Shown here one piece after another: positions 4,380 to 63,770 of a stretch of 64,000 bases of DNA (within the stretch, counting starts at the first letter, position 1; the number at the start of each line of letters is the position of its first letter). Source of the stretch: Candidatus Spyradenecus sp. (GTDB taxonomy: Bacteria > Verrucomicrobiota > Verrucomicrobiia > Opitutales > UBA953). The position numbers and the translations under genes are program-made. The stretch is taken from the NCBI GenBank assembly GCA_045535075.1, contig JAZSKX010000015.1, positions 75,994-139,993 on the forward strand. Reading direction: 5' to 3'. Under the pieces are notes generated by a model that saw nothing but the letters and a program-made list of their open reading frames with translations, ran no database searches and was not told the origin of the DNA.

Positions 4380-4419
4380 TAGTGTTCCCGTGAGTTTTCT
4401 GCGGGAATTTGCGGAGGTT

Positions 4420-7248
4420 TTACAGAAACTTGGCGGTGGGGGTGGAGGCGCGGGAGCGAAGTTCCTCGGGCGTTCCCGTGAAGATGAGTTGACCGCCTGC
4501 GTTCCCGCCGCAGGGACCGAGCTCGACGATCCAATCCGCGCAGCGCACGACGTCGCTGTTGTGTTCGATAACGATGAGCGTGTGCCCGGCGTCGCGCAGT
4601 TTAAAAAGCAAATTCATGAGCAGGCGGATGTCGTCCCAATGCAGGCCCGTCGTCGGTTCGTCGAGCAGGTAAAGTGTGCGTTCCCGCTTGCGCTTGGAAA
4701 GCTCGAGCGCGAGTTTGAGGCGTTGCGCTTCGCCGCCGGAAAGGGTCGGCGCGGGTTGCCCGAGTTTCAGATAGCCCAGCCCGACTTCGTCGAGCGTTGT
4801 AAGTAAATTTCGGATACTCGGTTGAGCGCGGAAAAACGTGCACGCGTCGGCGACGGTCATATCGAGCACTTCCGCGATGTTCAGCCCTTTGAAAAGCACT
4901 TCGAGTGTTTCGCGGTTGTAGCGCGCGCCGCGGCAACTCGGACACTCAACCCAGGTTTCGCCGAGAAACTGCATGTCGAGCGCGATTTGCCCTTCGCCCT
5001 GGCATTTTTCGCAGCGTCCGCCGCGTTTGTTAAACGAAAATCTTCCCGCGTCGTAGCCGCGCATTTTGGCGAGCGGCGTGGCGGCGTAAAGTTTTCTCAA
5101 CAAGTCAAAAATCCCGGTAAACGTTGCCGGATTCGAGCGCGGCGAGCGCCCGATAGGCGCTTGGTCAATGCGAACGAAACCTTCAAAATTTTCCAATCCG
5201 TCTATTCCTGCGTGCTTGCCGGGAACGCATTTCGCACGATTGATTTTGCGCGCGGCGGCGTTGCCGAGAATGCCGTTGACGAGCGTGGATTTGCCCGAGC
5301 CGGAAACGCCGCAGACAACGGTCAGCGCGCCGCACGGGAACGCGACATCGATGTTTTTCAAATTGTTTTCCGCCGCGCCGCGCACGGTAAAAAATCGCTT
5401 CGCGGGAACGCGCGGAAAAACTTCGGTGAGCTCACGGGAACGCGCGTCCGATGAAGTATTCAGAAATTGAGCCGTGCGTGATTTCCCTTCGGCAAGGCAT
5501 TCGGGGAGCGTTCCCGAAAAGACGAGCGTGCCGCCTTGCGTTCCCGCTCCGGGACCGATTTCTACGACGTGATCCGCCGCCAAAATCGTGTCGCGGTCGT
5601 GTTCGACAACGAGAACGCTGTTCCCGCGTTTGCGCAAATCTTTCATCTGCGCAATCAGCCGCGCGTGGTCCGCCGGGTGCAAGCCGATGCTCGGTTCGTC
5701 CAAAATATAAGTTACGCCGACGAGGCCCAAGCCGAGTTGCGCGGCAAGGCGCACGCGCTGAACTTCGCCGCCGGAAAGCGTCGAGTAGGCGCGATTCAGC
5801 GTCAGGTAAGAAAGCCCGGTTGTATCCAAAAATCGGAGACGTTTTTCCAAGCCAGCGCGCGCGTCTTCCACGGGCGCAACTGCGGGAACGCTTTTCAGAT
5901 TTTTGACAAAATCAAGCGCGGCGGGAACGCTCATCGCGAAAAAATCGCCGACGGATTTTCCGCCGAGTTTCACGGCGAGTGCGCGCGGATTCAGGCGCAA
6001 TCCGCCGCACGCAGCGCAGGGCGCGGAATGCTGAAACGCGAGTAAACGCGTGCGCAGAAGCAGGCTCGATGTCGAGGTTGCCGTTTTTTTCAAGTCGGCG
6101 AGCACGCCTTCGAAGGGGCGCGGCGCGGGCTTGCGGCGACCGTTTTTCAACAGGAATTCTTTTTCTCCGCTCCCGAAAAGGATGAGCTTTTGCGTTCCCG
6201 CGTCGAGTTTTTCCCAAGGCTCTTTCAGTGAAAACGGCACTTGCTCGGCGAGCTGGCGCAGCCACGCGTTGCGCTGGGTAATCATTTTTTTCGAGCCGTA
6301 GCGCCAAGGCTTGATCGCGCCGTCTTTGAGCGATTTTTTCGGGTCGGGAACGATGAGTTCGGGTAAAAATTGCGGTGTTTCGCCGAGTCCGCCGCACGCG
6401 GGGCACGCGCCGTCGGGGTGGCTTTCGGAAAAATTTTTCGGCGAGAGTGCCTCGTAGGTTTTTCCGCAGATTGTGCAGGAAAAATCGAGGCGAAGGGGAA
6501 TTTCCTTTTCTTCTGCGGGAAGCAGGGCGAAGGCGCGGTTTTTGCCTTCGCGAAAGGCGAGTTCGAGCGAGTCGGCAAGGCGGGAACGCGCGTCGGCGGA
6601 AACGACGAGGCGGTCGACGATGAGATCGAGTGCGAGGACTCCTTTTTTTTCAAACTTGGGCAATTCGTCGTCGAGGTCGAAAATTTCGCCGTCGATGCGA
6701 ATGCGCTGGAAACCGCGCCGGCGGAGGTTTTCGAGCTCGTCGTCGAGTAGTTTTCGTTTAATTTGCGTGTAGGGAGCGCCAAGGATGAGTTTCGTTCCCG
6801 CGGGCAGGGCGCAGAGTTGTCCGAGGCAATCGTCGAGCGTGCGGCGCGTGATTTCGCCGCCGTCGTCCGGGCAAAATTGCGTTCCCGCGACGGACCAGAG
6901 CAGGCGGGCGTAGTCGGCGATTTCGGTGGCGGTGGCGACGGTGGCGCGCGGGTTGTTGTTGGCGGAGCTGCGTTGTTCGATGGCGATGACGGGCGAGAGT
7001 CCGTGGATGAAATCGACGTCCGGGCGCGGAATTTGCTCCAGATTCGCGCGCATTTTTGCCGAAAGGCTTTCCAAATATTGGCGTGCGCCCTCGGCGTAAA
7101 TTGTGTCGAACGCGAGCGAGGATTTCCCGGATCCGGAAACTCCGGTAATTACGACGAGCTTTCCGCGCGGGATCCGAAGCTCGATGTTCTTCAGATTGTG
7201 TTCCCGCGCGCCTTTGACGTGAATTGTTCCCGGGGAAATTTCGCTCAC
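4420..7248 (-). CDS. uvrA: Excinuclease ABC subunit A
   Basis: GAREHNLKN, two GVSGSGKS Walker A motifs, two LSGGE signatures, zinc fingers. Confidence 0.97.
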
Positions 7249-7254
7249 GGCGAT

Positions 7255-7452
7255 TTAGCGTTGGCGATTGATGGCGTCAATAAGCGCTTGATTGCGTTCC
7301 CGTGCTTTTTCGTCGGCGACAACGAGAATGGCATGAATCATTCCCGGCACCCAGCCGAGGAAGCACAGCAACAGATTGAGCAGAAATTGAAACGGCTTTC
7401 CGCAAAGCAGGACTGCCAGCGGCGGAAGCAAAATTGCAATCAGATACAGCAT
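7255..7452 (-). CDS. YqaE/Pmp3 family small membrane protein
   Basis: AILLPPLAV...GWVPGMIHA signature. Confidence 0.85.
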   Translation of the reverse strand: MLYLIAILLPPLAVLLCGKPFQFLLNLLLCFLGWVPGMIHAILVVADEKARERNQALIDAINRQR

Positions 7453-7532
7453 AATGATTCCAATTATCGCCTCCTGCGGGAACGTCGCAAAGTTAAAATA
7501 AAAAAAGTGTTTCAGTTGCGGGGACGGGACTT

Positions 7533-8630
7533 TTAGCTTTTTACGTAAACGGTTTGCGTCGGAAACGCAAATTCAAGTCCGGTTTCGTTGAATCGCCTCA
7601 GAATTGCGAGATTGAGATTGTGTTTAAAACGAAGAAATTCGGCGTAGTCCGACGATGCGAAATGATAAACGGCAGTGATGTTGAGTGAGGCGTCTTGGAA
7701 GCGACTGAAATAGACGCGCGGGGCGGTTGTTCCGTTTTGAACGCAGAGCGGGTCGTTAAGTAATTGACGAATAATTACAACGGCGTTTTCGATTTGCTCG
7801 GGTTGCGTCGAGTAAATCAGCCCGAGGTTGATTTCGTCACGGATTGTTTCCCGAGCCGTTACGGTTCGGATTATTCGATTGGCGAGATCGCCGTTGGGAA
7901 TGCTCAGTACCGAGCCGTCGCGGGATCGAATCCGCGTTGAGCGCACGCCGACTTCTTCGACCGTTCCCGCGAGTTCGGTTCCGATGTCAATCATGTCGCC
8001 GACTTGAAACGGGCGGTCGAGAATCAACATCAGCGAGCCGAAAAAGTTTTTGACGGTATCCTGCGATGCTAAGCCGACGGCGAGCCCGCCGATGCCGAGC
8101 ATCGCGATAATTTCGGCGGGTTGGGTGTCGGTTGCAATGCGGATAATGATCAGGATTCCGATCCCGAGGATGCCGATTTTCATTAGTGCGGCAAAGAGCG
8201 GAAGTAGCGTTGCCGCCGATTTACTGCTTGGAGAGGCGTATCGGCGAATCAACGCGAGCGGCAGGCGAACGAGGTTCCAAGTGAAAACGGCGAGCGAGCA
8301 GGAGACAAAAATCCAAAAGAGGCGCGACAGAGCTTTCGTGGCTTCGGGCGGAAGATTTGCCGTGTTTCCGGAATAAATCGCGAATGCGATGAAGCCGATT
8401 CCGGTAAAAAGGAAAATTCCGGTTCGCGCGAGTGCTTCGAGGATTGTTCCCGCGATTATTTTTCGCGTCGGGATTGCTGCCGTTCCCGTCGGCTTCAACA
8501 GTATTTTTGACGCAAATAAGAAAAATTTTCGTAGTGCCCCTCCGATTGCAATTCCGCATAAAACAAAGGCAACAAGTTGAATTGCCGAGATTGCATCGGG
8601 AATCAGAGCCTTAAAAACAACAGAAATCAT
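7533..8630 (-). CDS. MscS family mechanosensitive channel
   Basis: GLAVGLASQDTVKNFFGS, RPFQVGD, GVRSTRIRS, FAFPTQTV. Confidence 0.92.
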   Translation of the reverse strand: MISVVFKALIPDAISAIQLVAFVLCGIAIGGALRKFFLFASKILLKPTGTAAIPTRKIIAGTILEALARTGIFLFTGIGFIAFAIYSGNTANLPPEATKALSRLFWIFVSCSLAVFTWNLVRLPLALIRRYASPSSKSAATLLPLFAALMKIGILGIGILIIIRIATDTQPAEIIAMLGIGGLAVGLASQDTVKNFFGSLMLILDRPFQVGDMIDIGTELAGTVEEVGVRSTRIRSRDGSVLSIPNGDLANRIIRTVTARETIRDEINLGLIYSTQPEQIENAVVIIRQLLNDPLCVQNGTTAPRVYFSRFQDASLNITAVYHFASSDYAEFLRFKHNLNLAILRRFNETGLEFAFPTQTVYVKS

Positions 8631-8759
8631 ATTAAAGAATAAGCGTCGGAGTGTCTGGTATTTGACCGGGAATTTCGGATTTTCGTTCTCGTTTTTGCCG
8701 GATTCTTTTGTTTTGTGTTTGTGATAAATTCGGGAAAAATTAAGCCAATTTATTTTTAC

Positions 8760-9872
8760 ATGGACACGGAACTCTTCGATTACGACTTGCCGGAACGCTT
8801 AATCGCGCAAACGCCCGCCGCCCGGCGGGAAGATTCGCGTCTGCTTGTCGTAGAGCGGAAATCGGGAACGCTCAGGCACTGCATCTTTCGCGATTTGCCC
8901 GATTTGCTGCCTGCGGGAACGCGAATGTTTCGTAACAATGCCGCTGTCTTGCAGGCGCGGCTTCCCGGTGTCCGCGAAGGCTCCGGCGGCAAGGTCGAAT
9001 GCCTGCTGCTGCGCCCGGGCGAGATCCCGACGCGTTGGTGGTGCCTGCTCAAACCCGGGAAGAAAGCCGCTTCGGGAAGCTTCGGAATTGAAGGTGTCTA
9101 TCGTGCGCACGTTGTCGCAAAAGAAGATTGCGTTGACGGCGGCGGAGAGTACTTGGTCGAGTTCGAAATCCTTCTTCCGCAGGGCAATGTGCTTGATGTT
9201 GCCGCGCAAGTCGGCTCGCTCCCGCTCCCGCCTTATATTACGCGTTCGCGCCCGAAGGACGCGGATTTTTCCGAGCTGGATAAAGAGCGTTATCAGACCG
9301 TTTACGCGTTTCGGGAAAATCCCGTTGCCGCTGCTGCGCCGACAGCCGGATTGCATTTTTCCGACGCGTTGCTGGAACGCTTGCGTTCCCGTGATGTTCC
9401 GCAATTCGATTTGACGCTTCACATCGGACTGGGAACATTCCAGCCGATTAAATCCGCAACGATTGAAGCGCATCCGATGCACAAGGAATTTTACACGATT
9501 CCTGCGAAAACGCGGGAACAGCTTGAAATCATTTGCCCGGAAAAATCGCCTCGCCTTGCCGTCGGAACAACCAGCTTGCGTGCCATGGAAGACTTCGCGC
9601 GCCGCCGCGCCGCCGGAGATCCGCTTATTCCCGAGGCGGGAAGCGTTGCCGCAACCGCCGGGCTTTTTGTCTATCCTCCGCAAACGATTTCCGGCGCGGA
9701 TATTATGATCACGAATTTTCACCTGCCGAAATCGACGCTTATGTGTTTGATTTCGACATTTCTCGCTCCGGGTGAAATGCGCGGAATTCAATGGCTAAAG
9801 GAAATTTACGCCGAAGCCGTTTCCCGCGAATACCGATTTTACAGCTACGGCGATGCGATGCTGATTCTTTAG
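8760..9872 (+). CDS. queA: S-adenosylmethionine:tRNA ribosyltransferase-isomerase
   Basis: FDYDLP..IAQ, PLPPYI, AAPTAGLHF, TNFHLPKST, YRFYSYGDAM. Start moved to the ATG at 8760. Confidence 0.96.
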   Translation: MDTELFDYDLPERLIAQTPAARREDSRLLVVERKSGTLRHCIFRDLPDLLPAGTRMFRNNAAVLQARLPGVREGSGGKVECLLLRPGEIPTRWWCLLKPGKKAASGSFGIEGVYRAHVVAKEDCVDGGGEYLVEFEILLPQGNVLDVAAQVGSLPLPPYITRSRPKDADFSELDKERYQTVYAFRENPVAAAAPTAGLHFSDALLERLRSRDVPQFDLTLHIGLGTFQPIKSATIEAHPMHKEFYTIPAKTREQLEIICPEKSPRLAVGTTSLRAMEDFARRRAAGDPLIPEAGSVAATAGLFVYPPQTISGADIMITNFHLPKSTLMCLISTFLAPGEMRGIQWLKEIYAEAVSREYRFYSYGDAMLIL

Positions 9873-9941
9873 GTGATTGCAAATCCGAGGCTTGATGTTT
9901 GAGAGTTGAAATTTAAAACTTAGAAAAACCCCGTTAAAATT

Positions 9942-11324
9942 ATGAATAAACTTTCCGTTAAAAATGCTCTTTCCGCGAGCGTTCCCGCAGACGAAGTGCT
10001 TGTCCAAGGTTGGGTGCGTACGCGCCGCGATTCCAAGGCGTTTTCTTTTATCGAGCTCAACGACGGCTCGTGCCAAAAGAACCTGCAAATCATCGTCGAT
10101 GCAAATTGCCCCGGCTATGAGAATGTAAAGAATACGCTTACGGGAGCGGCGGTTTCCGTTGTCGGCGCGCTCGTCGCCTCGCAAGGGAAAGGACAAAGTT
10201 GGGAAGTTCACGCGAAAGATTTTCGCCTCGTCGGGACGGCGCCGGATTCGTTCCCGCTTCAGAAAAAAGGACACACGGTTGAATTTCTGCGCGATATTCC
10301 GCACTTGCGCGCCCGGACAAATCGCCTCGGCGCGATGTTCCGCGTGCGTTCCCGCCTTGCGTACGCCGTGCATAACTTTTTCCAGTCCCGCGGCTTCGCT
10401 TATGTTCACACGCCGATTATCACAACCAGCGATTGCGAAGGCGCCGGCGAACTTTTTCGCGTGACGACGCTCCCGCAGGACGCGCTTCCGAAAACGCCGG
10501 ACGGCAAAATTGATTACGCGCAGGATTTCTTCGCCCGCCAATCTTTCCTCACCGTCAGCGGACAGCTCGAAGCCGAAACGCTCGCCTGTGCCCTCGGCAA
10601 CGTTTATACGTTCGGGCCGACGTTTCGCGCGGAAAATTCGCACACATCGCGCCATGCCAGCGAGTTTTGGATGATTGAACCCGAAATGGCATTTTGCGAT
10701 ATTTTCGGCGATATCGATATGGCGGAGGCGTTTATTAAACATCTCATCGCCGATATTTTGGAAAATTGCCCGGATGAAATCGCGTTCTTCGACAAATTTG
10801 TCAGCAAAGGCTTGCGGGAACGCCTGCAGGCGGTTTTGGACAATCCGTTTGTGCGCGTTTCTTACACGGACGCGATTGAGATTCTTCAAAAATCCGGTGA
10901 AACGTTCGAGTTTCCGCCGGTTTGGGGCGAAGCGCTTCAGTCTGAACACGAGCGCTTCCTGACGGAAAAACACTTCCGCTCGCCGGTCGCCGTTTACAAT
11001 TATCCGCGCAAGGCAAAACCGTTTTACATGCGTCAAAATGACGACGGGAAAACCGTCGCGGCGGCGGATTTGCTCGTTCCCGGAATCGGCGAAATCGTCG
11101 GCGGGAGCCAGCGTGAAGAACGCTTGGAGCGCCTTTTGGAGGCGATGCGGGAACACGGCTTGAGCGAAGAGGATTACGGCTGGTATGTTGATTTGCGCCG
11201 CTTCGGCAGTGTGCCGCATTCCGGTTTCGGTTTGGGCTTCGAGCGTATGTTGATGTTTGTTACCGGCGAAGGGAATATCCGCGACGTCATTCCGTTCCCG
11301 CGTACGCCGGGAAATGCCCGCTAG
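9942..11324 (+). CDS. asnS: Asparagine--tRNA ligase
   Basis: [39 protein letters not shown]. Confidence 0.96.
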
Positions 11325-11349
11325 GAAATTTTGCTCCCGGATCGGCAGA

Positions 11350-11727
11350 TTACAATGCCGGTTCGGGGCGGGAAATGCGGACGGAAATGTCGCCGAACGG
11401 CGTCGGAATCGGAGCTTCCGGCTTGTGGATTTCAACGTCGATGCTTTTCAGAAGCGGAAATTCAGCCAAGAGAGTTCCCGCGATTTTTTCGGCGAGCGCT
11501 TCAATTAAATTAAAGCCGGGCTTGGCTGAAACGATTTCGACGACACGCGCGATGACGGCGGCGTAGTTGACGGTTTTTGCCAGCTCATCGCTTGTTCCCG
11601 CAGGTTTTAAATCGAGCGAAAGCGTGAGCGTGATGTAGAAATTTTGTCCGTTCTCTTTTTCTTCCGGCAAAACGCCGTGGTAGCCGAATGTATGTATTTT
11701 TTCGATACGGATTTTATCGCTTGGCAT
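11350..11727 (-). CDS. folB: Dihydroneopterin aldolase
   Basis: GYHGVLPEEK..GQ, TVNYA, FNLIEALAE, KPEAPI. Start at the ATG at 11727. Confidence 0.92.
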   Translation of the reverse strand: MPSDKIRIEKIHTFGYHGVLPEEKENGQNFYITLTLSLDLKPAGTSDELAKTVNYAAVIARVVEIVSAKPGFNLIEALAEKIAGTLLAEFPLLKSIDVEIHKPEAPIPTPFGDISVRISRPEPAL

Positions 11728-12757
11728 TTTGAATTTCCTCCAGCATGACGGCGACGTTTTCGATGCAGGCTTGCGGTTGAATGCCGTGTCCGAGATTAAA
11801 AATAAATCCGCTTTCTCCGTGCATTTCGTCAAGAATTTCCCGTGTGCGTTCCCGTACGATTTGCGGATTTTTCAAATTTAAGATGCACGGATCGAGATTG
11901 CCCTGAAGCGCGAGGCGCGTTCCCGCAGGAAGGTTTTTACGGATGCCGGAAAGCGAATGCGTCCAGTCGACGCCGAGGACGCTTGCGCCGGTTTTTGCGA
12001 CGGAGCCGGCAAGATGAGCCATGCCTTTTGCGAAAACGATAACGGGTACGTTTGCGGGAACGGCGGCGATGATTTTACGAATCCAGCGCAGTGAAAGTGC
12101 TTCGTATTCCCGTGCGGTACAAAGCGAAGCCCAGGAGTCAAAAAGCTGAACGGCGTCAACGCCCGCCGCAATTTGCATTTGTAAGTAAGCGATAATTGCG
12201 TCGGAAAGTTTTTCCATCAGCGCGTTAAAATCAGCGGGATGTTCGGCGGCAAGCTCTTTAATTTTTGAAAATTGTTTGGAAGAGCCGCCTTCCACCATAT
12301 AGGTCGCCAGTGTCCACGGCGTTCCCGCGAATCCGAGCAAGGCTCGCGTGCCGCCGAGGCGTTCCCGTACGATTTTTTGCGCGGCGGGAACGTAGGCGAG
12401 TTTTTCGTAAACTTCATCGGCGGTTCCGAGACGTCGGATTTGTTCGGCGGAATCGAGTGTAAATTCCATGGAAATGCCGCCGTTGCCGAAGCGGTAATTT
12501 TGCCCGAGGGCTTCGGGAATGACGAGGATATCGCTGAACGTGATTGCCGCATCCAGCGTTTCAAAGCGTTGCACGGGCTGGAGCGTTACCTCTGCCGCCA
12601 GTTCCGGCGTTTTTACCAAAGTGAGAAAATCGTAGCGTTCTTTGAGCGCGCGATATTCCGGCAAATAGCGTCCGGCTTGGCGCATAATCCAAACAGGCGG
12701 GCGATCCGTCGGTTCACAACGGGCGGCGGCGAGAAAACGTTCGCGGGAAGAAATCAT
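11714..12757 (-). CDS. hemE: Uroporphyrinogen decarboxylase
   Basis: PVWIMRQAGRYLPEY, FSDIL, QGNLDP, FNLGHG. Confidence 0.96.
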   Translation of the reverse strand: MISSRERFLAAARCEPTDRPPVWIMRQAGRYLPEYRALKERYDFLTLVKTPELAAEVTLQPVQRFETLDAAITFSDILVIPEALGQNYRFGNGGISMEFTLDSAEQIRRLGTADEVYEKLAYVPAAQKIVRERLGGTRALLGFAGTPWTLATYMVEGGSSKQFSKIKELAAEHPADFNALMEKLSDAIIAYLQMQIAAGVDAVQLFDSWASLCTAREYEALSLRWIRKIIAAVPANVPVIVFAKGMAHLAGSVAKTGASVLGVDWTHSLSGIRKNLPAGTRLALQGNLDPCILNLKNPQIVRERTREILDEMHGESGFIFNLGHGIQPQACIENVAVMLEEIQNAKR

Positions 12758-12763
12758 ATTTTT

Positions 12764-55594: not shown

Positions 55595-55676
55595 CGGAAG
55601 AATGGAGAAGCGGAGGAAATCTCTCGGCAACGCCATTTCCTGAACCGGCTTCTCCGGTCTCTGAGCTTCGGCTAAT

Positions 55677-55716
55677 AAAACCGTTCCCGTGGTTAATTTC
55701 GCGGGAACGGTTTTTT
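55677..55716 (+). terminator. Motif-pair terminator after tdh
   Basis: AAAACCGTTCCCGTG-GTTAATTT-CGCGGGAACGGTTTTTT. Confidence 0.85.
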
Positions 55717-55930
55717 ATATGCGAGTTTTTCTTCGTGGCGCGCGGCGTTTCGCATTGTTCTCCGGGGCATTATTCGTTTCGCGCGGGATTCTGTTCGAGC
55801 TTCCGTTGGGCGCCATTTCTAAGCACTTCAGCTTTCTCGGCTTTTGAGCTTCTGGATTCGGCTTCCGGTTCTTGAGATTTTTTTGTTCCAAGGGCGGGAG
55901 CGGCTGTGTCATGATTGGCGTTTTAAAAGT

Positions 55931-57841
55931 ATGCTTGAGCAGTTTTTTTCTCTTTTGGATTCGGCGCGCGGGATCGCCGTCATTGTTCTTTTTTTCGGCG
56001 GTTCAATTTTTGTTCATGAGCTGGGGCATTTCCTCGCGGCAAAATGGCGCGGCTTGCGTGTTGAGCGTTTTTCAATCGGCTTCGGACCGAAAGTCTTCGG
56101 TTGGACGGGAAAGGATGGCGTTGACTACCGCATCTCGCTTTTGCCTTTGGGCGGTTATGTTGCGATTCCGGAGCTTGCGGATATGGAGCTTATCGAGGGA
56201 AAATCCTCGCAAAATTCGGAGGCGGACGGCGTTCCCGCGAAGAAAATTTCTTATACGGATAAGGTGATTGTCTTTGCCGCGGGAGCATTTTTTAACATTT
56301 TGTTTGCGTTCGTATTGGCGTGTGTTTTGTGGCTTATCAAAAGCCCGACGCACGAAGGCTATGATTCGTCCGTGATCGGTTATGTCGCAAAGGAAATTGA
56401 GCCGGAAGCCGGCGTTCTTGTTCCCGGACCGGCTTGGGAAGCGGGATTGCGCGCGGGAGACCGGATTCTTGCGATTGACGGAGAGGCGACCGAAAGTTTC
56501 GATGAAATTACTCAAGCAATTGCGCTCGGCACGCAACGCAGTGAAGACGGACGTCCGATGGCGAATCTGACGATTGCCCGCGGGAACGCTGTTTTGGAAA
56601 AACAGGTTTTCCCGTGCCTAGTCTCGCACAATCCGCGTAGTGGGGATTTTATTCGTATGATCGGCATTGCGCCGACGGATTCGCTGGTGGTGGCTCCGAT
56701 GGAAAATTCCCCGGCGGCGGAGGCCGGCGTGCGCTACGGCGACCGATGGACGGAAATTGCCGTCGGAGATTCGGGGGCTTGGAAGCCGCTTTACTCCTTT
56801 GCGGAATTTCGCGAAATTATTGACGAAAGCGTTAGAGGAAACGATGCCGTTCCCGTGCGTGTCCGCTATGTGCGCGGCGACGGGAAGCCGGAAGTCTTGA
56901 GCATGCTTCCGAAGCTGCTTCCGGTAAAAAACGAATCGGCGTTTATTCGTTTTTCGGAAGGCGGGAAAGAGCGCGTTTTGCGCCTTATCGCGGCGCCGGA
57001 AGATTTGTCGAATACAGCCTTGCGGGCGAAGCGCAATACGTTGCGCGTGCTTGAAGGCGTTCCTGTCGATTCGGCTTATGCGGATATTTTCAGAGCGGGA
57101 ACGCTCATCGACGGTATTGCCGAAGCGGGCGAGGGAATTGTCGCGCCGAAAACGCCGGATGAACTGAAAAAAGCGTTTCCGGAGGAAACCCCGCGCGAAG
57201 TTTCGATTTTTGTTACGACTCCTGACGGAGAAGGCGGGAACACGCGTTTCTCGGGTGCGGTACTAGGGCTCAATCCGGAGCTCATACAGCCGTTTCTCGG
57301 CGTGGTGCTTGTTCAGGAAGAGCGCTTGGTGCGCAAGTCGCCATGGGCGCAGTTCGACGACGCGATCGGGATTACGTTTAAATCGATCGGCGGCTTGCTG
57401 AACCCGAATTCGGACATCGGAATCTCGCATCTGAACGGCGTTTTTTCTATCGGAGATACTTATTACGCGATTTCGTCAAATTTGCGCAGCGTGCTTGTCC
57501 TGACGGTCCTGATTAACATCAATCTCGCGATTCTGAATCTGCTTCCCGTTCCCGTGCTCGACGGCGGGCATATTCTGATTGCGACGATTCAGCGCCTGCG
57601 CCGCCGCCCGATTCCGTTGCAGATTATCAACGGCGTTCAGCTCGTTTTCATTTGTCTGCTGTTTCTGTTTATGGGCTTTGTCCTGTTTAAAGACTTTGTG
57701 CGTTTTCGCGGGAATCGAGACATCGAGGCAAGCCGGCAAATTGCGCGCTTTCAATATACGCCGGAATTTCTTGCGCTGACGGATTCAAAATTGCTGATTG
57801 CGGGAACGCAGGAGAAATCCGCGTCTGGGGAAGAAAAGTAA
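55931..57841 (+). CDS. rseP: RIP metalloprotease RseP (M50, with PDZ domains)
   Basis: HELGH, FSIGFGP, LPLGGYV, NLLPVPVLDGGH. Confidence 0.93.
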   Translation: MLEQFFSLLDSARGIAVIVLFFGGSIFVHELGHFLAAKWRGLRVERFSIGFGPKVFGWTGKDGVDYRISLLPLGGYVAIPELADMELIEGKSSQNSEADGVPAKKISYTDKVIVFAAGAFFNILFAFVLACVLWLIKSPTHEGYDSSVIGYVAKEIEPEAGVLVPGPAWEAGLRAGDRILAIDGEATESFDEITQAIALGTQRSEDGRPMANLTIARGNAVLEKQVFPCLVSHNPRSGDFIRMIGIAPTDSLVVAPMENSPAAEAGVRYGDRWTEIAVGDSGAWKPLYSFAEFREIIDESVRGNDAVPVRVRYVRGDGKPEVLSMLPKLLPVKNESAFIRFSEGGKERVLRLIAAPEDLSNTALRAKRNTLRVLEGVPVDSAYADIFRAGTLIDGIAEAGEGIVAPKTPDELKKAFPEETPREVSIFVTTPDGEGGNTRFSGAVLGLNPELIQPFLGVVLVQEERLVRKSPWAQFDDAIGITFKSIGGLLNPNSDIGISHLNGVFSIGDTYYAISSNLRSVLVLTVLININLAILNLLPVPVLDGGHILIATIQRLRRRPIPLQIINGVQLVFICLLFLFMGFVLFKDFVRFRGNRDIEASRQIARFQYTPEFLALTDSKLLIAGTQEKSASGEEK

Positions 57842-57857
57842 TTTTTGTAATTACATT

Positions 57858-59195
57858 ATGGCTGAAATTATTCTGATTATTGTTGGAATTCTTGTTGTTG
57901 TTGCCTTAGTTATCGCAAACGGATTTTTCGTTGCGGCGGAATTCGCGCTTGTGAAAGTGCGCCCGACGCAGCTGCATCCGCTGGAAAAAGACGGCGGTAT
58001 TCGCGTGAAGGCGGCGCTCCGGGCGACCAAACATCTCGACGGCGTTTTGTCTGCAACTCAGCTCGGAATTACACTCGCATCGCTTGCGCTTGGATGGGTA
58101 GGAGAACCGATTGTCGCTCACAAAATCGTAGAGCCGCTTTTGGGGCATTTCGGGATTACGGACGCGGGAACGATCACGACGGTTTCCTTTGCCGTTGCTT
58201 TCGCCATTATCACGTTTCTCCATATCGTTTTCGGAGAACTCGCACCGAAGTCGCTTGCAATTCAATACCCGATGGCGACTTCGCTCAATGTCGCCGTCCC
58301 GCTGATTATTTTTCATAAAATCTTCTTTCCCTTTATTTGGGCGCTCAACGGTACGGCGAATTTCTTTTTGCGGCGCGTGGGAATTCATCCCGCCGGAGAG
58401 GGCTCTCACGCCATTTCCAAAGACGAAATGGAATACGTGCTTTCGCATTCCCGCCCGGCTTCCGACGATGTTTTGATTGACCGCATTTTAATTCGTTCGC
58501 TACGCCTGCGCGATACGCGCGTCAACGAAGTGATGATCCCGCGCGACGAAATCAATGCTCTTTGGAGCAAGGTCGCGGGAACGGAAAATCTGCGAACGGC
58601 GCAACGAACCGGGCACTCGCGCTATCCGGTTTTTGACGGCGACTTGGACAAACCTGTCGGTATTTTGCTGACGCGCGAATGGCTTTGGCAAATCCAGTTG
58701 CTCGGCGAAGATACGCCGATCGAGCCGCTGTTGCGGGACGTGATGATTTTCCCGCCGGACATGGCGCTTGCCGATGCTTTGGAGCGCTTCCGCCAATCGC
58801 AAAATCACATTGCTCTTGTCGTCAACGCAGAAGGACGCACGCTGGGACTCGTCAGTTTTGAAGACGTACTCGAAGAAATCGTCGGCGACATTCGTGACGA
58901 ATTCGATACCGATAAGAAGGAAATTTTTGAACAAACGGAAGATTCCATTATCGTCGCGGGAACGCTCAATATGCACGAACTTGAGGCGGAAACCGGTTGG
59001 AATTTCGAATGGGACGGAAACAGCTATGAAACCGTCGCGAGCTGGGTTCGCTCGCTTTGTCCCGGGCGCCCGCCGAAGCGCGGCGAAACCTTGCGCTACG
59101 AAGACGTGGAAGTCATTCCGCTCGAAACGCCAGCAGGCTCGCTCAAGCGTATTTTGCTTCGTCGCGTTTGGGAGGGAAGCAAAGAAGAAATTTAA
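57858..59195 (+). CDS. HlyC/CorC (CNNM-CBS) family transporter
   Basis: NGFFVAAEFALV, QLGITLASL, GELAPK, HSRYPV, EDVLEEIVG. Confidence 0.93.
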   Translation: MAEIILIIVGILVVVALVIANGFFVAAEFALVKVRPTQLHPLEKDGGIRVKAALRATKHLDGVLSATQLGITLASLALGWVGEPIVAHKIVEPLLGHFGITDAGTITTVSFAVAFAIITFLHIVFGELAPKSLAIQYPMATSLNVAVPLIIFHKIFFPFIWALNGTANFFLRRVGIHPAGEGSHAISKDEMEYVLSHSRPASDDVLIDRILIRSLRLRDTRVNEVMIPRDEINALWSKVAGTENLRTAQRTGHSRYPVFDGDLDKPVGILLTREWLWQIQLLGEDTPIEPLLRDVMIFPPDMALADALERFRQSQNHIALVVNAEGRTLGLVSFEDVLEEIVGDIRDEFDTDKKEIFEQTEDSIIVAGTLNMHELEAETGWNFEWDGNSYETVASWVRSLCPGRPPKRGETLRYEDVEVIPLETPAGSLKRILLRRVWEGSKEEI

Positions 59196-59261
59196 AAACG
59201 CGATTTTTTGCAAGAATGGTTTAATTTAACAGTTAGCGAGTTTTTCGCCTTGTGTAAAACT

Positions 59262-59459
59262 AAGGGCACGATTGAGGAAATCTCAGTCATGCCCTTTCGT
59301 TCTTTTCAAGTTTTGTGCGTCGAAAACACAAACAAAAGCGGCGACCGAAAGTCGAGAAACTTCAGTTCGTCCTGGTGATTCTTCAAATCATCGAGGCGAT
59401 TCTGAAGCTCCTCACCCGGTGGGTGACCGCCCGGGTCTTGAAAAGAGCGTTAAGGGTAT
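59262..59459 (+). other. Structured element encoding a basic-amphipathic short peptide (type I toxin-like), in frame with miaB
   Basis: 5' hairpin at 59262-59296; 59289-59310 is complementary to 59437-59459; GTG start at 59315. Confidence 0.5.
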
Positions 59460-59587
59460 TTCCTACTTTTGTTCGCCGAAGTCAATCTGAACCCGGCATC
59501 GGAATTGCGACGGCGACGCGTAACATGACTTGCAACGGAAATTCTTTATCGCACTCCGGCAATCTTTTCGAGAAAATCACGCGTTTT

Positions 59588-60967
59588 ATGAATCGGGTTT
59601 ATATTAAGACTTACGGTTGCCAGATGAACGAGCGCGACAGCGAGGCAGTTGTGGAAATGTTGCGCGGGCGCGGTTATTCCATCGTCGATAACGAGTTCGA
59701 CGCCGACATCATTTTACTGAACACCTGTAGTGTGCGCGACCAAGCCGAGCAAAAAGCCATCGGCAAGGCGTATCGCCTGCTCCCGAGCCGGAAAAAACGC
59801 GCCAAAGACGCAGACAAAGGCATTCCCGCGGACGGAAAAAAACGCATCGTCGGGATCATGGGTTGCATGGCGCAAAATCGCGGGCGCGCCTTGCTCGACC
59901 AGCTTCCCGATTTGGATTTGATTGTCGGAACGCAAAAATTTCACCGCGTTCCCGAGCATTTGGACAAACTGCTTGCGACAATGCGCGGGCTCGGTCCGAA
60001 GCCGTCGTCCATCGTCGATTTAGACGAAGAAGCCGGCTCGCAAAACACGATTTCGCAGCACACGCCGGGACGCAAAATTTCCGCCTTCGTTTCGATTATG
60101 CAGGGCTGCGACATGCGTTGCGCGTATTGCATCGTACCGAAAACTCGCGGACACGAGCGCGCGCGTCCGATTGACGACATCGTCGCGGAAGTCGAAGAAC
60201 TTGTCGCTGCGGGAACGCGCGAAGTGATGCTTCTCGGGCAAATTGTGAATCGCTACGGCATTCGCGAGTTCCCGACGATTAACGGCAAGTCTCCGTTTGT
60301 TCAGTTGCTCGAACGGTTGCATGCGATTGAGGGCTTGGAGCGCATTCGTTTCACGTCGCCGCATCCGGTCGGCTTCCGTGAAGATTTGGTCGACGCGTAT
60401 CGCCGTTTGCCGAAGCTTTGCAGTTATATTCATCTTCCCGCGCAGAGCGGTTCGGACAAAATTTTGAAAGCGATGCGCCGTCCGTATTCGCGGGAACGCT
60501 TTATTGAGCTTGTGAATGCGTTGCGCGCAGCTCGTCCGGGCATTTATCTTTCGACGGATGTCATCGTCGGCTTCCCCGGCGAAACGGAAGAGGATTTTGA
60601 GCTTACGCGTTCGCTTTTCGAGGAAGTCAAATTCGACATGGCGTTTATTTTCCGCTACAGCGTGCGCGCGGGAACGCCGGCGGAGGCGCTCGGCGACCCG
60701 ATTTCCGAGGAAATCAAAGACGCGCGCAACAAGGAGCTCCTCGCCGTTTTGGAAAAACATTCGCTCGCGCGCAACGAATCGCTCGTCGGAACGATTCAGG
60801 ACGTTTTGGTCGAAGCACCCGCCAAACGCGGCGAAAATATTTTCCAAGGGCGCAACGACGGCGACCGCAAAGTCGTTTTCAAGGGCGACGAATCGTTGCT
60901 CGGAAAAATCGTCCGCGTGCGCATTGATTCCGCGACCGTCACCACGCTCACGGGAACGTTGGTTTAA
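59588..60967 (+). CDS. miaB: tRNA-2-methylthio-N6-dimethylallyladenosine synthase
   Basis: TYGCQMNERDS, NTCSVR, CDMRCAYC radical-SAM motif, TRAM domain. Start at the ATG at 59588. Confidence 0.96.
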   Translation: MNRVYIKTYGCQMNERDSEAVVEMLRGRGYSIVDNEFDADIILLNTCSVRDQAEQKAIGKAYRLLPSRKKRAKDADKGIPADGKKRIVGIMGCMAQNRGRALLDQLPDLDLIVGTQKFHRVPEHLDKLLATMRGLGPKPSSIVDLDEEAGSQNTISQHTPGRKISAFVSIMQGCDMRCAYCIVPKTRGHERARPIDDIVAEVEELVAAGTREVMLLGQIVNRYGIREFPTINGKSPFVQLLERLHAIEGLERIRFTSPHPVGFREDLVDAYRRLPKLCSYIHLPAQSGSDKILKAMRRPYSRERFIELVNALRAARPGIYLSTDVIVGFPGETEEDFELTRSLFEEVKFDMAFIFRYSVRAGTPAEALGDPISEEIKDARNKELLAVLEKHSLARNESLVGTIQDVLVEAPAKRGENIFQGRNDGDRKVVFKGDESLLGKIVRVRIDSATVTTLTGTLV

Positions 60968-61105
60968 TCGCCTTCAAAAAACAGCGTACAATCCTCAAGT
61001 TCTATCATCTCAATGAAAAACATTCCTTCCGATTTTATGGCGGTAGTGAAGAAGCAAAAGAATATCTGAGGACTATCGGAGGATTGTAATTTTTTTATTA
61101 AATGC

Positions 61106-61143
61106 AAAAAGCGTTCCCGCGAAATTTCACGGGAACGCTTTTT
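61106..61143. terminator. Bidirectional motif-pair terminator (miaB/lpxD)
   Basis: AAAAAGCGTTCCCGC-GAAATTTC-ACGGGAACGCTTTTT. Confidence 0.85.
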
Positions 61144-61156
61144 TGATCGAAACGAA

Positions 61157-62197
61157 TTATTTTCCGGCGAGTTGTTTTTCGATGGCTTTGATTTTGGAGT
61201 GCATTTCCGGAATGCGCATTTTCAAGACCATGAGTTTTTTCGCCAAGCCGATCGGGATTGCCGGAGAATCGAGCATCGTTGCGCCCGGTTCGACATCGCC
61301 GAGAACGCCGGCTTGCGCGCCGATCGTTGCCTTGTCGCCGATTTTGATATGCCCGGCGAGACCGACTTGCCCGGCAAGCGTAACGTAGTCGCCGACCGTC
61401 GTCGAACCCGCCATGCCGACCTGCCCGCAGAGGAAGCAGTATTTGCCGATAACGCAGTTGTGCCCGATTTGAACCAAATTGTCGATTTTCGTTCCCTTGC
61501 CGACGCGCGTTGAAGAAAAGCGCGCGCGGTCAATACACGTTCCCGCGCCGATTTCGACGTCATCTTCAATGACAACGTTCCCGATTTGCGGAATTTTTTC
61601 AATTTTCCCGTCCACGGGAATGAAGCCGAAGCCGTCTGCGCCGACAACGGCGTTGGGCAAAATGTGAACGCGTGCGCCGATTTGCGAGTAAGCGCAGATA
61701 CGCACGCCGCTTTCGATGTGGGAATTTTCGCCGACGGAAACGGCGGTGCCGAGCGTTACGTGCGAATCGAGCACCGCGCCGTCGCCGACGCTTGCTTTTT
61801 CTCCGATGACGCAGAACGGACCGATGTGGACGTTTTTGCCGATTTTTGCGGATTCGGCAATAACGGCGGTCGGATGCGTTCCCGCCGGCGGTTTCGGCCA
61901 GAGTGCCGCTTCAATTTGCCCGCAAATCAGCGCGAGCGTGTAAGACGGTTTTTCGACAAAAATATACGCCTGATTTTCCTTCGGCGAGCTTCCCGTGTAA
62001 TTCGCGGGAACGAGAATTGCGGACGCGTTGCAGGTTGCGACTTGAGCGTGGTATTTGTCGTTCCCGAGAAACGCAAGGTCGCCGGCAACGGCGGAATCGA
62101 GCGAGCCGATGTTGGAAAGCGGGGTTGTCGTGTTGCCTTCGACTTTAATCGGGTCGATGACGTTGCAAAGTTGTTCGAGGGTAAATGCGAGAGCCAT
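61157..62197 (-). CDS. lpxD: UDP-3-O-acyl-glucosamine N-acyltransferase
   Basis: Hexapeptide repeats, GADGFGF, KIPQIG, KIDNLVQIGHN. Confidence 0.96.
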   Translation of the reverse strand: MALAFTLEQLCNVIDPIKVEGNTTTPLSNIGSLDSAVAGDLAFLGNDKYHAQVATCNASAILVPANYTGSSPKENQAYIFVEKPSYTLALICGQIEAALWPKPPAGTHPTAVIAESAKIGKNVHIGPFCVIGEKASVGDGAVLDSHVTLGTAVSVGENSHIESGVRICAYSQIGARVHILPNAVVGADGFGFIPVDGKIEKIPQIGNVVIEDDVEIGAGTCIDRARFSSTRVGKGTKIDNLVQIGHNCVIGKYCFLCGQVGMAGSTTVGDYVTLAGQVGLAGHIKIGDKATIGAQAGVLGDVEPGATMLDSPAIPIGLAKKLMVLKMRIPEMHSKIKAIEKQLAGK

Positions 62198-62303
62198 AAA
62201 AAGTATTAGCGGAGGTGGATAAGCGATAGGGTTAATTAGTTTTCAAAAGAGCGTTCTTCGTCGAGCTTGCAGATGCAACTTCGATGAAGAACACCGATTG
62301 GAT

Positions 62304-63770
62304 TTAAAGTTTTTTGAATTTTTCGTAAGCGGCTTCCCATGCCGTACGATCGGCGGCGGGAACGTAGGTTTTTACATCAAACGAATTACGGACGACGCTT
62401 CGGATTTCATCGAGCCCGGAAAGTTCTCCTGCGGCGACAGCTTGAATCAGCACGTTCCCGCAGCTTGTACCTTCGACCGGACCGGCGACGACCGTGCGAC
62501 CTGTGGCATCGGCGATAAATTGCATGAAAAGCTTTGAGCGGGAGCCGCCGCCGACGACGTGGAGCGTATCGATCGGTTTTTCTGCGAGCGCGGAAATATC
62601 GTCAAGCGCTTTGCGGTAGGCGAGGGCGAGGCTTTCCAAAATACAACGCATTGTTTGTCCGACGTTCGCGGGAACGGGTTGTCCTGTTTCGGCGCAGAAG
62701 TCTGCGATTTTTTGCGGCATTTCGTTCGGTTTGAGAAAGCGTGCGTCGTCCGGATTGATGTGCGAGCGCAAAGCCGGCTCCATCGCGGCGAGCTTGTCGA
62801 GCTCGGGCGCGGGAGTGTCATTGCCGTTGGCTTTCCAGTAGCGCATGGATTCCTGTTGGATCCACATGCCGACGATGTTTTTCAAAAAGCGTGCTGTGTA
62901 GCCGTAGCCGACTTCGTTTGTGTAATTTGCCTTGCGAACCGTTTCGTTAATAAACGGAGTCGGCGATTCAATGCCGATGAGAGACCAAGTTCCGCAAGAA
63001 AGGAATGCCCAGCTTGTGGAGGCATCGGCGGGAATTGCGGCGACGGCGGCACCGGTGTCGTGTGAGCAGGATGCGACGACTTCCGTTTCCGGCGAAAGTC
63101 CGGTTTCTTCGGCAATCGCGGGAACGAGCTTACCTAGCGTTGTGCCGGAAGGAACGATTTTCGGAAAGATTTTTCGCGGAATGCCCAGTGTGTCGGCAAT
63201 TTCATATGACCACGTTTTTGTGCGCGGATTGTAAAGTTGCGTTGTACTGGCGAGCGAAATTTCAGCGGCGGGAACGCCGGAGAAAAGCCAGTTAAAGTAG
63301 TCTCCGATGTTAAGAAAACTTTCGGCTGCGGAGAGAATTTCCGGGCGGGAACGAGCATCTTCAAAGAGCTGATAGAGAGTGTTGATGCCGAGGAACATGA
63401 TGCCGGATTCCGCAAAGAGTTTTTCGTCCGGAATGATTTCGCGGACGCGTTCAATCGAGCCGTCGGTGCGGGAATCTCGGTATTGATAAGGCGCGGTCAA
63501 CATCGGCTCGGCGCCTTTGAGCAGAACGTAGTCAACGCCCCAGGAATCGGTTGAGATACTTTTGACGGGAATGCCGCGGTCAGCGACTTTTTTTAGCCCA
63601 GCCTTCAGCTCGTCGAAGAGACGGATGACGTCCCAACGCAAGGAGCCGTTGACGGGAACGGCCTTGTTGTAAAAACGGTGAATTTCTTCGAGCGTGATTT
63701 TCCCGTTTGCGAGAGTTCCGAGTATGACGCGACCGCTGTCGGCGCCCAAGTCGAGTGAGAGGTAGTTCAT
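62304..63770 (-). CDS. rhaB: Rhamnulokinase-family (FGGY) sugar kinase
   Basis: DLGADSGR, DSWGVDY, HDTGAAV, GTWSLIG, TNEVG, LKNIVGMW. Confidence 0.9.
   Translation of the reverse strand: MNYLSLDLGADSGRVILGTLANGKITLEEIHRFYNKAVPVNGSLRWDVIRLFDELKAGLKKVADRGIPVKSISTDSWGVDYVLLKGAEPMLTAPYQYRDSRTDGSIERVREIIPDEKLFAESGIMFLGINTLYQLFEDARSRPEILSAAESFLNIGDYFNWLFSGVPAAEISLASTTQLYNPRTKTWSYEIADTLGIPRKIFPKIVPSGTTLGKLVPAIAEETGLSPETEVVASCSHDTGAAVAAIPADASTSWAFLSCGTWSLIGIESPTPFINETVRKANYTNEVGYGYTARFLKNIVGMWIQQESMRYWKANGNDTPAPELDKLAAMEPALRSHINPDDARFLKPNEMPQKIADFCAETGQPVPANVGQTMRCILESLALAYRKALDDISALAEKPIDTLHVVGGGSRSKLFMQFIADATGRTVVAGPVEGTSCGNVLIQAVAAGELSGLDEIRSVVRNSFDVKTYVPAADRTAWEAAYEKFKKL

Follow-up and report, generated by a model that had tools for sequence, protein, structure and literature searches.

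A hyper-abundant DNA word with uptake-sequence-like features in a ruminant-gut genus of Verrucomicrobiota

What causes a bacterial genome to spell the same short word thousands of times? A 64,000-nucleotide stretch of a Candidatus Spyradenecus sp. genome (contig JAZSKX010000015.1, positions 75,994 to 139,993; here, the window) raises this question, as CGGGAAC and its complement GTTCCCG recur throughout it on both strands. The first-pass annotation of this DNA had proposed an independently evolved system for sequence-specific DNA uptake. To our knowledge, such uptake is known from only two proteobacterial families. In one of them, the Neisseriaceae, the minor pilin ComP binds the DNA uptake sequence (DUS); the evolution of uptake words is debated, with molecular drive set against selection for 'safe sex'. 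Here we show that the word is hyper-abundant in every genome of one genus, that high-density species maintain it and that its loss from a low-density species is consistent with neutral decay. With slightly less than even confidence, we read the 8-mer CGGGAACG (in its full form y-R-CGGGAAC-G-c) as a genus-specific word that would mark self DNA under an uptake-sequence-like recombinational drive.

A short word enriched at the level of DNA

CGGGAAC/GTTCCCG occurs 238 times in the window, against a mean of 14.13 (s.d. 3.56, maximum 26) in 100 dinucleotide shuffles, and 173 of these copies extend to the 9-mer RCGGGAACG. The hand counts of the first-pass annotation proved exact (22 copies in 4384-7484 and 6 in hemE, 11714-12757), and the figures around them needed revision: the window is 52.4% GC rather than about 60%, a density of about 1 per 150 bp is true of uvrA only, and copies run from 1446 to 63653 rather than starting at 4384, although positions 1-4400 are sparse. 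Across the genome that holds the window (G000; 1,949,087 bp in 18 contigs, ~52% GC), we counted 6,528 copies of CGGGAAC (1 per ~300 bp), 5,159 of CGGGAACG (1 per 378 bp, or ~2.1% of the genome), 3,244 of GCGGGAACG and 1,266 of ACGGGAACG. A median of 77 copies in a sample of 300 8-mers with the same base composition puts the enrichment of CGGGAACG at ~67-fold. A maximal-order Markov expectation was dropped as a null because the sub-words themselves carry the enrichment, leaving it uninformative. These counts confirm the hyper-abundance of CGGGAAC and CGGGAACG.

Alignment of 6,921 GGGAAC sites gave the logo y-R-C-G-G-G-A-A-C-G-c, with about 10-11 informative positions and zero information in the flanks beyond positions -4 to +7, which argues for a bare word rather than the core of a longer repeat. 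The word is non-palindromic, differing from its own reverse complement. Single-mismatch variants of CGGGAACG range from 26 to 857 copies in G000, and the strictest positions of the 8-mer are 1, 2 and 5. Among these variants, CGGGAGCG is common (857 copies) and CGGGGACG rare (68 copies).

The first-pass description of a short, fixed word on both strands inside open reading frames (ORFs) holds for all six frames and for intergenic DNA. In a gene set of 1,505 crude calls (greedy longest ORFs of at least 100 amino acids (aa), covering 90% of the genome), CGGGAAC falls 705, 1,675 and 984 times in the sense frames (sum 3,364) and 1,398, 461 and 445 times in the antisense frames (sum 2,304); a further 860 copies are intergenic, amounting to 13% of copies within ~10% of the DNA. 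Over the same calls, we built two codon-aware nulls of 10 replicates each. A synonymous shuffle within genes yielded 569 sense and 380 antisense copies and a permutation of codon order 202 and 174, against 3,369 and 2,306 observed, that is, 6-fold and 15-fold excesses. For the 9-mer, the enrichment is ~11-fold over the shuffle and ~60-fold over the permutation.

Neighbouring codons influence codon choice in this genome. GGG-AAC encodes Gly-Asn in 47% of cases after a C-ending codon (n = 2,086) and in 7% otherwise (n = 703), and GTT-CCC encodes Val-Pro in 82% of cases before G (n = 1,698) and in 6% otherwise (n = 833). Protein sequence is affected only mildly: identity of alanyl-tRNA synthetase (AlaRS) to five outgroups is 0.55 at codons overlapped by the motif and 0.64 elsewhere.

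Could so abundant an 8-mer in a recombining genome be a polar motif like Chi or the FtsK-orienting polar sequences (KOPS), a repeat of the repetitive extragenic palindromic (REP) or miniature inverted-repeat transposable element (MITE) type, or a by-product of codon usage or repetitive proteins? Giant genes carrying the word in one strand and frame (~250 copies together) might suggest so, but they hold only ~4% of the total, the flanks are not conserved and the enrichment survives both the synonymous shuffle and the codon permutation. Orientation is nearly balanced on contigs of uniform GC skew, with 562 plus and 699 minus copies (45:55) on contig C5 (negative skew) and 481 plus and 436 minus (52:48) on contig C1 (positive skew). 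Replichore bias, which the first-pass annotation had named as the sign of Chi or KOPS, is absent, and a polar function of that type is excluded. We thus reject this group of explanations, whose chance of being right appears negligible. The giant genes themselves (C5:125845-140217, 4,791 aa; C8:185333-198142, 4,270 aa; C9:13798-25875, 4,026 aa) have 69 of 69, 64 of 64 and 43 of 44 copies on the sense strand, mostly in the frame xCG-GGA-ACx, and probably encode Gly-Thr-rich repetitive surface proteins.

The word is also paired in terminators, as the first-pass annotation had noticed. In G000, 205 GTTCCCG...CGGGAAC pairs are separated by 7-24 bp, most often by 19 bp (n = 58), and 139 of the 205 sit between genes or at a gene edge. 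For separations of 11-40 bp we counted 234 pairs in this orientation and 85 in the opposite one, which is not enriched. The commonest layout is A-run / GC-GTTCCCG / loop / CGGGAAC-GC / T-run, and all 7 window pairs that we folded form stable hairpins (-18.8 to -31.8 kcal/mol, z -3.6 to -7.9). The word is present in all four of the strongest terminator-like stems between 24 and 44 kb of the window. Inverted word pairs are accordingly predicted to serve as transcription terminators. The 30 bp downstream of trkH that form one such hairpin are 100% identical to L134:4567-4596, immediately upstream of alaS in the congener G016. As a side observation, terminator hairpins with similar loops recur (for example ...GTTCCCGtgaNNNatttcgCGGGAAC...) and may be a small mobile family. 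An exact 14-bp palindrome made of two abutting copies, GTTCCCGCGGGAAC, occurs at 45535-45548 and 46562-46575 in addition to the site in Table 1; exact 14-bp palindromes number 21 genome-wide.

Distribution, maintenance and decay within one genus

We counted CGGGAACG across related genomes, treating the two strands separately. All 19 genomes of the genus are enriched in it, against 0 of 62 genomes of four sister genera and 0 of 12 genomes of the order's other families, where it stays at the level of a reversed-word control. Outside the genus, none of 80 loci on named genome contigs carries the word. A candidate dialect of sister genus g14, CGGGTACG (31 copies in 40 kb of G031), was rejected as one giant repetitive gene, because a single 20-kb piece holds all the copies, every one on the same strand and in the same frame. 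The twenty runs from nine studies that contain the stretch are sheep, goat, gut or fecal metagenomes, placing the habitat in the ruminant gut. The lineage, called 'likely Opitutia' by the first-pass annotation, fits that name through 67% AlaRS identity to 'Opitutae bacterium BS6' and through an 'Opitutales bacterium' annotation.

Density divides the genus. Fifteen species, G000 among them, are high-density; the other fourteen have 5,161-7,777 copies in 1.6-2.2 Mb, with G003 at about 1 per 220 bp (genome sizes rounded), and the word takes up 2-3.6% of the genome. The low-density species G001, G002 and G013 have ~1,350 copies each and G014 has 552, which is 4- to 10-fold fewer. In a rooted alaS tree, the outgroups join beside high-density G008 and G009, while G014 and the G001/G002/G013 trio form separate low-density lineages. 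The four low-density species thus probably represent two lineages, although a single-gene alaS tree is weak evidence for exactly two losses, given the mosaic structure of the G000 genome described below. In passing, the alaS loci of G002, G013, G003, G012, G008 and G009 have in-frame stops within the AlaRS match, which probably precede the true start (in the G000 ORF, the Pfam domain begins at residue 34) or, in G009, fall at breaks.

Individual sites are shared between species at the level of DNA. Across 14 species, uvrA holds 30 distinct sites, many of them common to 8-14 species that are only ~80% identical. Across 19 species and 5 outgroups, alaS holds 28 sites, several common to 14-18 species and none present in the outgroups. 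Many conserved sites lie at x-Gly-Asn, where high-density species read ...C GGG AAC and both outgroups and low-density species read ...C GGC AAC.

To place these sites against a neutral expectation, we compared G000 with high-density G016 (a 400-kb sample, ~24% of that genome, of which 221.6 kb aligned to G000) and with low-density G013 (1.18 Mb, about 56% of that genome). In DNA at 60-80% identity, G016 keeps 209 of 468 G000 sites (45%) and G000 keeps 209 of 441 G016 sites (47%), against 15.7% of generic 7-mers in each direction. Where G000 and G016 are near-identical, only 8 of 232 and 11 of 235 sites are disrupted, against ~10.4% expected. G013 keeps 627 of 2,698 G000 sites (23%), against 26% of generic 7-mers, and G000 keeps 627 of 807 G013 sites (78%), against the same 26%. 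In alaS, G008 keeps 7 of 10 G000 sites, against a fraction of 0.16 for other 7-mers, and G001 and G014 each retain 1 of 10. In hemE, G000 has three private sites at which its relatives are 1-3 mismatches away. At 39% of G000 sites, G013 has a one-off variant, most commonly CGGGGACG (186 of 1,047 one-off sites). From the retention comparisons and the private hemE sites, it follows that high-density species hold their sites about 3-fold above the neutral expectation and create new ones, whereas site loss in G013 is consistent with neutral decay. A rough estimate from the G000-G013 comparison puts their ancestor near 1.6 sites per kb; G000 now has 3.15 and G013 0.94.

Gene flow, mosaic structure and word-poor islands

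The window is a mosaic of whole genes. Eight of them (uvrA, alaS, ilvD, an M42 peptidase gene, tyrS, the ORF at 54.5-55.6 kb, a miaB-like gene and lpxD) are 97-99% identical to G016 and 95-98% to G007 (94% for uvrA in Table 1); the remaining genes are 66-84% identical to G016 and G007 and 70-89% to the G001 trio, with which G000 is collinear across 10 kb. Homology to G016, G007 and G010 breaks off no more than tens of bases from the gene ends and gives way to unrelated flanks. Tracts that are adjacent in G000 need not be so elsewhere: alaS and ilvD are ~280 kb apart on one G016 contig. The tract junctions are spanned, at about 98-99% identity, by contigs assembled in four other studies (for example X6 record 23 (42,497-50,405), X5 record 16, X3 record 13 and X1 record 5; in run X3, about 40.6-50 kb is barely covered, if at all). 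Because these contigs are independent, the mosaic is not a chimeric metagenome-assembled genome (MAG).

The same pattern extends to the genome sample. By share of aligned bp between the G016 sample and G000, 25% is at least 95% identical (29 segments), 3% is 90-95%, 5% is 80-90% and 65% is 65-80% identical, a bimodal distribution. The 30 segments that are at least 93% identical are 0.4-6.6 kb long. Gene trees are discordant as well, with G010 91% identical to G011 in hemE and 95-97% identical to G016 in uvrA and alaS. Homologous exchange among word-bearing species thus appears to be frequent, limited to loci at least about 85% alike and gradually homogenizing whole genes.

The low-density species look genetically isolated. 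The alignment of G000 with G013, its closest relative, is unimodal at 75-85% identity; of the 856 kb aligned, 640 bp are at least 95% identical. Between G013 and the G016 sample, a single segment of 984 bp is that similar in 123 kb. In 20-kb samples of G001 and G014, identity to species of other lineages peaks at 87% and 73%, respectively. The only G000-G013 segment that is at least 95% identical comes from a small gene (C2:21606-22245) close to the MmeI-family enzyme gene described below.

Exchange on this scale would also feed a different process, biased repair or gene conversion with no bias in uptake, in which a very-short-patch (VSP)-like or recombination-associated activity resolves near-word heteroduplexes towards the word and any route of DNA exchange drives its spread. 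High homologous exchange would supply the heteroduplex, sites are held about 3-fold above neutral with new ones arising, and no competence gene tracks density. One-off variants at the strict positions, CGGGGACG among them, stay near background in G000, and CGGGGACG is the commonest variant at G013 one-off sites, as though conversion removed such variants in the lineage of G000. We consider this process quite unlikely all the same. No Vsr homologue was found in G000, no candidate enzyme turned up, and MutS, present in 19 of 19 genomes, is uniform across them. As far as we know, the abundance effects of VSP-type repair are small, far below ~67-fold, and the terminator pairs and the depletion of islands are explained equally well by uptake.

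The word is far below the genome average in two Mu-like prophages (C16:~183,000-220,000 and C8:~21,000-35,000), which encode Gam, MuA/MuB-type transposition proteins, terminase, portal and protease and, in one case, a C5 DNA methyltransferase. It is also depleted in two C5-methyltransferase islands and in the specificity and accessory genes of type I restriction-modification (R-M) loci. In the window, the HsdR island forms the left edge of the word-dense part; together with the region at 50.7-53.0 kb, it has 0.9 copies per kb, against 3.9-4.6 per kb in native window DNA. The large word-sparse regions are foreign DNA. Beside the DUF6844 gene, runs X3 and X6 have 2,841 other letters in place of ~180 bp at 50547/50728, an insertion/deletion polymorphism.

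Sites that are conserved between species as DNA and depleted in foreign DNA could instead form a binding array, in which an abundant nucleoid-associated or self/non-self protein binds the word and each site is under weak selection. Density in native genes is indeed roughly uniform (median 3.1 per kb over 1,159 genes of at least 600 bp, 83 of which have zero copies). Such an array seems highly improbable to us, however: the sites are spaced with neither periodicity nor evenness, two lineages let them decay with no visible difference in genome size, and the link to gene flow is left unexplained. We know of no described nucleoid protein that uses thousands of exact GC-rich 8-mers. The features of the window are collected in Table 1.

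Table 1 Features of the 64-kb window (positions from the first letter of the window; identities are to the named congeners)
Position	Strand	Feature	Evidence or comparison
1..4400	+	Word-poor island with type I restriction R-subunit gene HsdR (1158-4379; 4 copies in gene)	Pfam HSDR_N, SWI2_SNF2, T1RH-like_C
1446..63659	both	238 dispersed CGGGAAC/GTTCCCG copies, 173 as RCGGGAACG, in genes (all frames) and intergenic DNA	
4418..7238	-	uvrA, 19 copies (6.7/kb)	Whole-gene tract: G016 97%, G010 96%, G007 94%; flanks unrelated
11714..12757	-	hemE, non-exchanged, 6 copies, 3 unique to the G000 lineage (alignment columns 372, 396, 702)	
24997..25026	.	Inverted pair, hairpin -28.4 kcal/mol, downstream of trkH	Folding
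25510..30783	.	alaS (25510-28643) and ilvD (28877-30783), whole-gene tracts	98% identical to G016
28675..28704	.	Inverted pair between alaS and ilvD, terminator-like hairpin -20.7 kcal/mol	Folding
30725..30738	.	Exact 14-bp palindrome GTTCCCGCGGGAAC, two abutting copies	Word search
38826..38864	.	Top terminator-like stem-loop of 24-44 kb (17 pairs, scored both strands, -31.8 kcal/mol), inverted word pair	
40825..41973	+	M42 peptidase gene tract	99% identical to G016; bridged by X6 record 22, X5 record 14
41956..41995	.	Bidirectional terminator-like hairpin, A-run / CGTTCCCG-loop-CGGGAACG / T-run, -24.4 kcal/mol	
45521..46767	+	tyrS tract	99% identical to G016, 81% to G001; bridged by X6 record 23, X5 record 16
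50700..53000	+	Word-free stretch with DUF6844 protein gene (51244-52614, zero copies)	
54560..55594	-	Tract (ORF 54476-55636, no Pfam match)	98% identical to G016; bridged by X1 record 5, X3 record 13, X6 record 27
59539..62198	.	miaB-like gene (59539-60967) and lpxD (61157-62198), tracts	98% identical to G016

Candidate machinery, competing readings and known systems

If the word is an uptake sequence, the genus should encode a route for DNA into the cell, and much of one was found. A single cluster in G000 encodes two PilB/GspE-type ATPases, a PilT-family ATPase (435 bits against a curated cut-off of 319), PilC/GspF and RecD2; one secretin was found in this genome. Four prepilin-type pseudopilin genes with weak 'Verru_Chthon cassette' matches adjoin ruvX, with recJ and recR no more than 10 kb away. 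All 19 genomes have a ComEC-related gene and DprA, and the four low-density species have PilT (found in G008 too) and a secretin. Collinearity of the pseudopilin operon is clear in the G001 trio, G014 and G018; elsewhere in the genus the operon is matched piecemeal. Of the genes for which the first-pass annotation had suggested a search, a ComEC-related gene, DprA and pseudopilins were recovered, alongside a PilT-containing pilus set, and ComEA and a ComP-like pilin were not.

A second secretin, considered as specific to low-density species, was rejected because it also occurs in high-density G004, G012 and G018 (7 of 19 genomes in all); its open frames are 774-878 aa long in G001, G002, G013, G014, G004, G012 and G018. 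A fourth T2SSE-family ATPase occurs in the four low-density species, beside the pseudopilin operon in G014. The pattern of both genes follows phylogeny rather than word density.

Under our preferred reading, a recombinational drive like that of uptake sequences, the biased step would be preferential uptake of word-bearing DNA through type IV-pilus/ComEC/DprA transformation, followed by homologous replacement, as for the DUS and the uptake signal sequence (USS). Point mutations that create the word at permissive positions (silent, tolerant or intergenic) would be over-transmitted because word-bearing fragments are taken up more, and copies lost to mutation would be restored by the same bias. 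Inverted pairs would be tolerated as terminator stems and hence accumulate, and incoming prophages and R-M islands would lack the word until ameliorated. Species that share the word would draw on one gene pool wherever loci are sufficiently conserved for recombination, and lineages that lose the bias would see the word decay neutrally and leave the pool. Uptake (or any transformation step) as the biased step, the identity of the receptor and causality between word and gene flow are what we infer here.

Several results weigh against this reading. The ComEC-related protein scores 74.7 bits, below the ComEC/Rec2 equivalog cut-off of 190. Canonical ComEA was not detected in the 19 genomes, where PF12836 matched only ORFs of ~770-900 aa (18 of 19 genomes), which we take to be Tex-type proteins. 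No ComP-like pilin was among the matches, and by sequence the pseudopilins resemble solved pilins only in the N-terminal helix. None of the genes tested (ComEC, DprA, MutS, PilT, the secretin and the pseudopilin operon) tracks word density. No dialects were found, either: low-density congeners carry the same word, and own words were sampled in 4 sister genomes only. Spacing between copies is near exponential (mean 295 bp, coefficient of variation 1.09), being neither even nor periodic. Exchanged loci are not denser in the word in the window (4.58 against 3.88 per kb, p = 0.28); in the genome sample they are (4.10 against 3.38 per kb, p = 0.017), but the tract coefficient in ordinary least squares falls to ~0 once GC is included. 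Gene flow and density were compared in one high-density genome pair and three low-density samples, and ecology could account for their association. Our literature search found no uptake or transformation data for this organism, and G000 encodes a complete MmeI-family type IIL enzyme, which supports a different explanation. The first-pass proposal of an independent uptake-sequence system is therefore upheld in its sequence hallmarks, all of which were found, and falls short on ComEA and ComP, on a density-tracking gene and on dialects.

That enzyme lies at C2:15779-18766 (L162:250-3237), with MmeI_N, helicase spacer, methyltransferase, target-recognition and C-terminal domains (E 1e-26 to 6e-89), and keeps alive the methylation-driven, HIP1-like origin that the first-pass annotation had listed as its alternative. 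The word could be the target of a resident methyltransferase such as this one, its abundance being kept up by a chromosomal role of the methylated site or by self-marking in transformation or recombination. The MmeI family recognizes non-palindromic words of 6-8 bp and methylates one strand. The gene has 9 word copies (3.0 per kb), a native-like density, so it has either been resident for long or been acquired from a congener. Some 11 protein clusters match the enzyme at 75-87% identity, one of them annotated 'Opitutales bacterium', and a metagenome scan returned only relatives at no more than 61% identity, from unrelated habitats. The gene was not found in the 1.18 Mb (~56%) of low-density G013. 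HIP1 itself is reported to be linked to two methylases (PMC13756078) and, in a preprint, to transformation efficiency (10.1101/2024.09.10.611283).

Even so, we hold a methylation-linked origin to be unlikely. The gene is also not seen in the 400-kb sample (~24%) of high-density G016, and the other DNA retrieved for comparison yielded no homologue. It is followed by a 937-aa gene with zero copies and 39% GC in a rearranged region, and the G013 contig ends at the syntenic point, features more suggestive of a mobile island than of a core gene shared by the whole genus. Genomes normally avoid restriction sites instead of accumulating them, and the information in the word spans about 10-11 bp, wider than a type IIL site. 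The abundance of CGGGAGCG and rarity of CGGGGACG are the opposite of the ...R-A-C recognition pattern of type IIL enzymes. In a scan of G000 limited to Vsr, PF01555, C5 and MmeI families, neither a Vsr homologue nor a PF01555 methylase was found, and both C5-methylases are located in word-free islands.

How does the word compare with known systems? In every feature visible in sequence, it appears to work like DUS and USS, and because word, core and flanks all differ, it belongs to neither family. In common with the DUS of Neisseriaceae, it is a short, non-palindromic, clade-specific word on both strands, in genes and intergenic DNA, with inverted pairs as terminators and with core genes exchanged among the species that share it. 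It differs from DUS in its phylum, Verrucomicrobiota, in lacking dialects, a ComEA and, by sequence, a ComP-like pilin among what was found, and in length (an 8-mer core in ~10-11 informative positions against 10-12 for DUS). Its density (5,159 to ~7,800 copies in genomes of 1.6-2.2 Mb) is comparable in order of magnitude to that of the densest DUS known, with 5,918 kingDUS in the 2.4 Mb of Kingella oralis (Frye 2013, PMC3630211). The same paper describes a CTG core conserved in all DUS dialects, which the logo y-R-CGGGAAC-G-c lacks; we see no sequence relation to DUS as presented there.

As with the USS of Pasteurellaceae, most copies lie in coding regions and in several frames, with an effect on codon choice and a mild one on protein sequence. 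Word density here is several-fold above USS density, the phased AT-rich flanking segments of USS are absent, and word and phylum differ. In both, accumulation is compatible with molecular drive (Bakkali 2007, PMC1939737). HIP1 (GCGATCGC) of cyanobacteria is likewise a hyper-abundant octamer, present about once or more per gene and conserved as DNA. Unlike the word studied here, which is non-palindromic and randomly spaced, HIP1 is palindromic, recognized by two methylases and reportedly quasi-periodic; our candidate methylase, the MmeI-family enzyme, is a lead only. Recent work reportedly ties HIP1 to horizontal gene transfer or transformation.

A closer parallel comes from the same phylum. 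In Chthoniobacterales/Verrucomicrobiae loci L047, L018 and L031, a different word, GCCTAACGA, has 17, 13 and 12 copies per ~22 kb. This GCCTAACGA/TCGTTAGGC word is also non-palindromic and hyper-abundant; it differs in letters, lineage (ours being a gut Opitutales-type genus) and habitat, which is soil for the Chthoniobacterales, and density here is ~3- to 4-fold higher. Our genus adds natural low-density lineages and measured gene flow. Enrichment of a different word in Chthoniobacterales suggests that the phenomenon may be widespread in Verrucomicrobiota. Separately, raw counts with no null gave HIP1-like GCGATCG/GATCGCC at 38-45 per 22.7 kb in L026/L068 (a Chthoniobacteraceae MAG), CCGGAAAT-type words at ~17-21 per 22.7 kb in L076 (an Opitutales chromosome) and TGGAACG/GCGTTCA at 17-19 per 21 kb in L014 (a named Verrucomicrobiota contig). 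We found no literature report of the word or of uptake sequences in Verrucomicrobia; letter matches were primers.

A bolder proposal, which we regard as possible but doubtful, is that the word acts as a 'mating tag' delimiting a multi-species gene pool in gut Opitutales. The known uptake-sequence systems, all of them proteobacterial, would then be joined by a third one of independent origin, with a density that equals or exceeds the highest on record. As parts of that same doubtful proposal, word-keeping species would exchange whatever loci can recombine, leaving housekeeping genes 95-99% alike and others 65-80%, and lineages without the recognition step would have decayed neutrally and become genetically isolated. 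The loss lineages could then reveal the receptor, possibly a 'Verru_Chthon cassette'-like pseudopilin beside ruvX, and such a receptor would link the genus to the different word of Chthoniobacterales.

For the debate over how uptake words evolve, the genus offers a new word in another phylum, with close relatives that maintain it or lose it neutrally. The consequence is measurable as a bimodal mosaic, in which G000, the high-density species analysed, has near-identical core genes in common with another high-density clade. The finding opens the questions of what recognizes the word, whether such words delimit bacterial gene pools and at what pace they rise and decay. In practice, the word is a sensitive marker of native versus recently acquired DNA in MAGs of this genus and, if uptake proves true, it would provide a handle for the genetic manipulation of an uncultured gut lineage.

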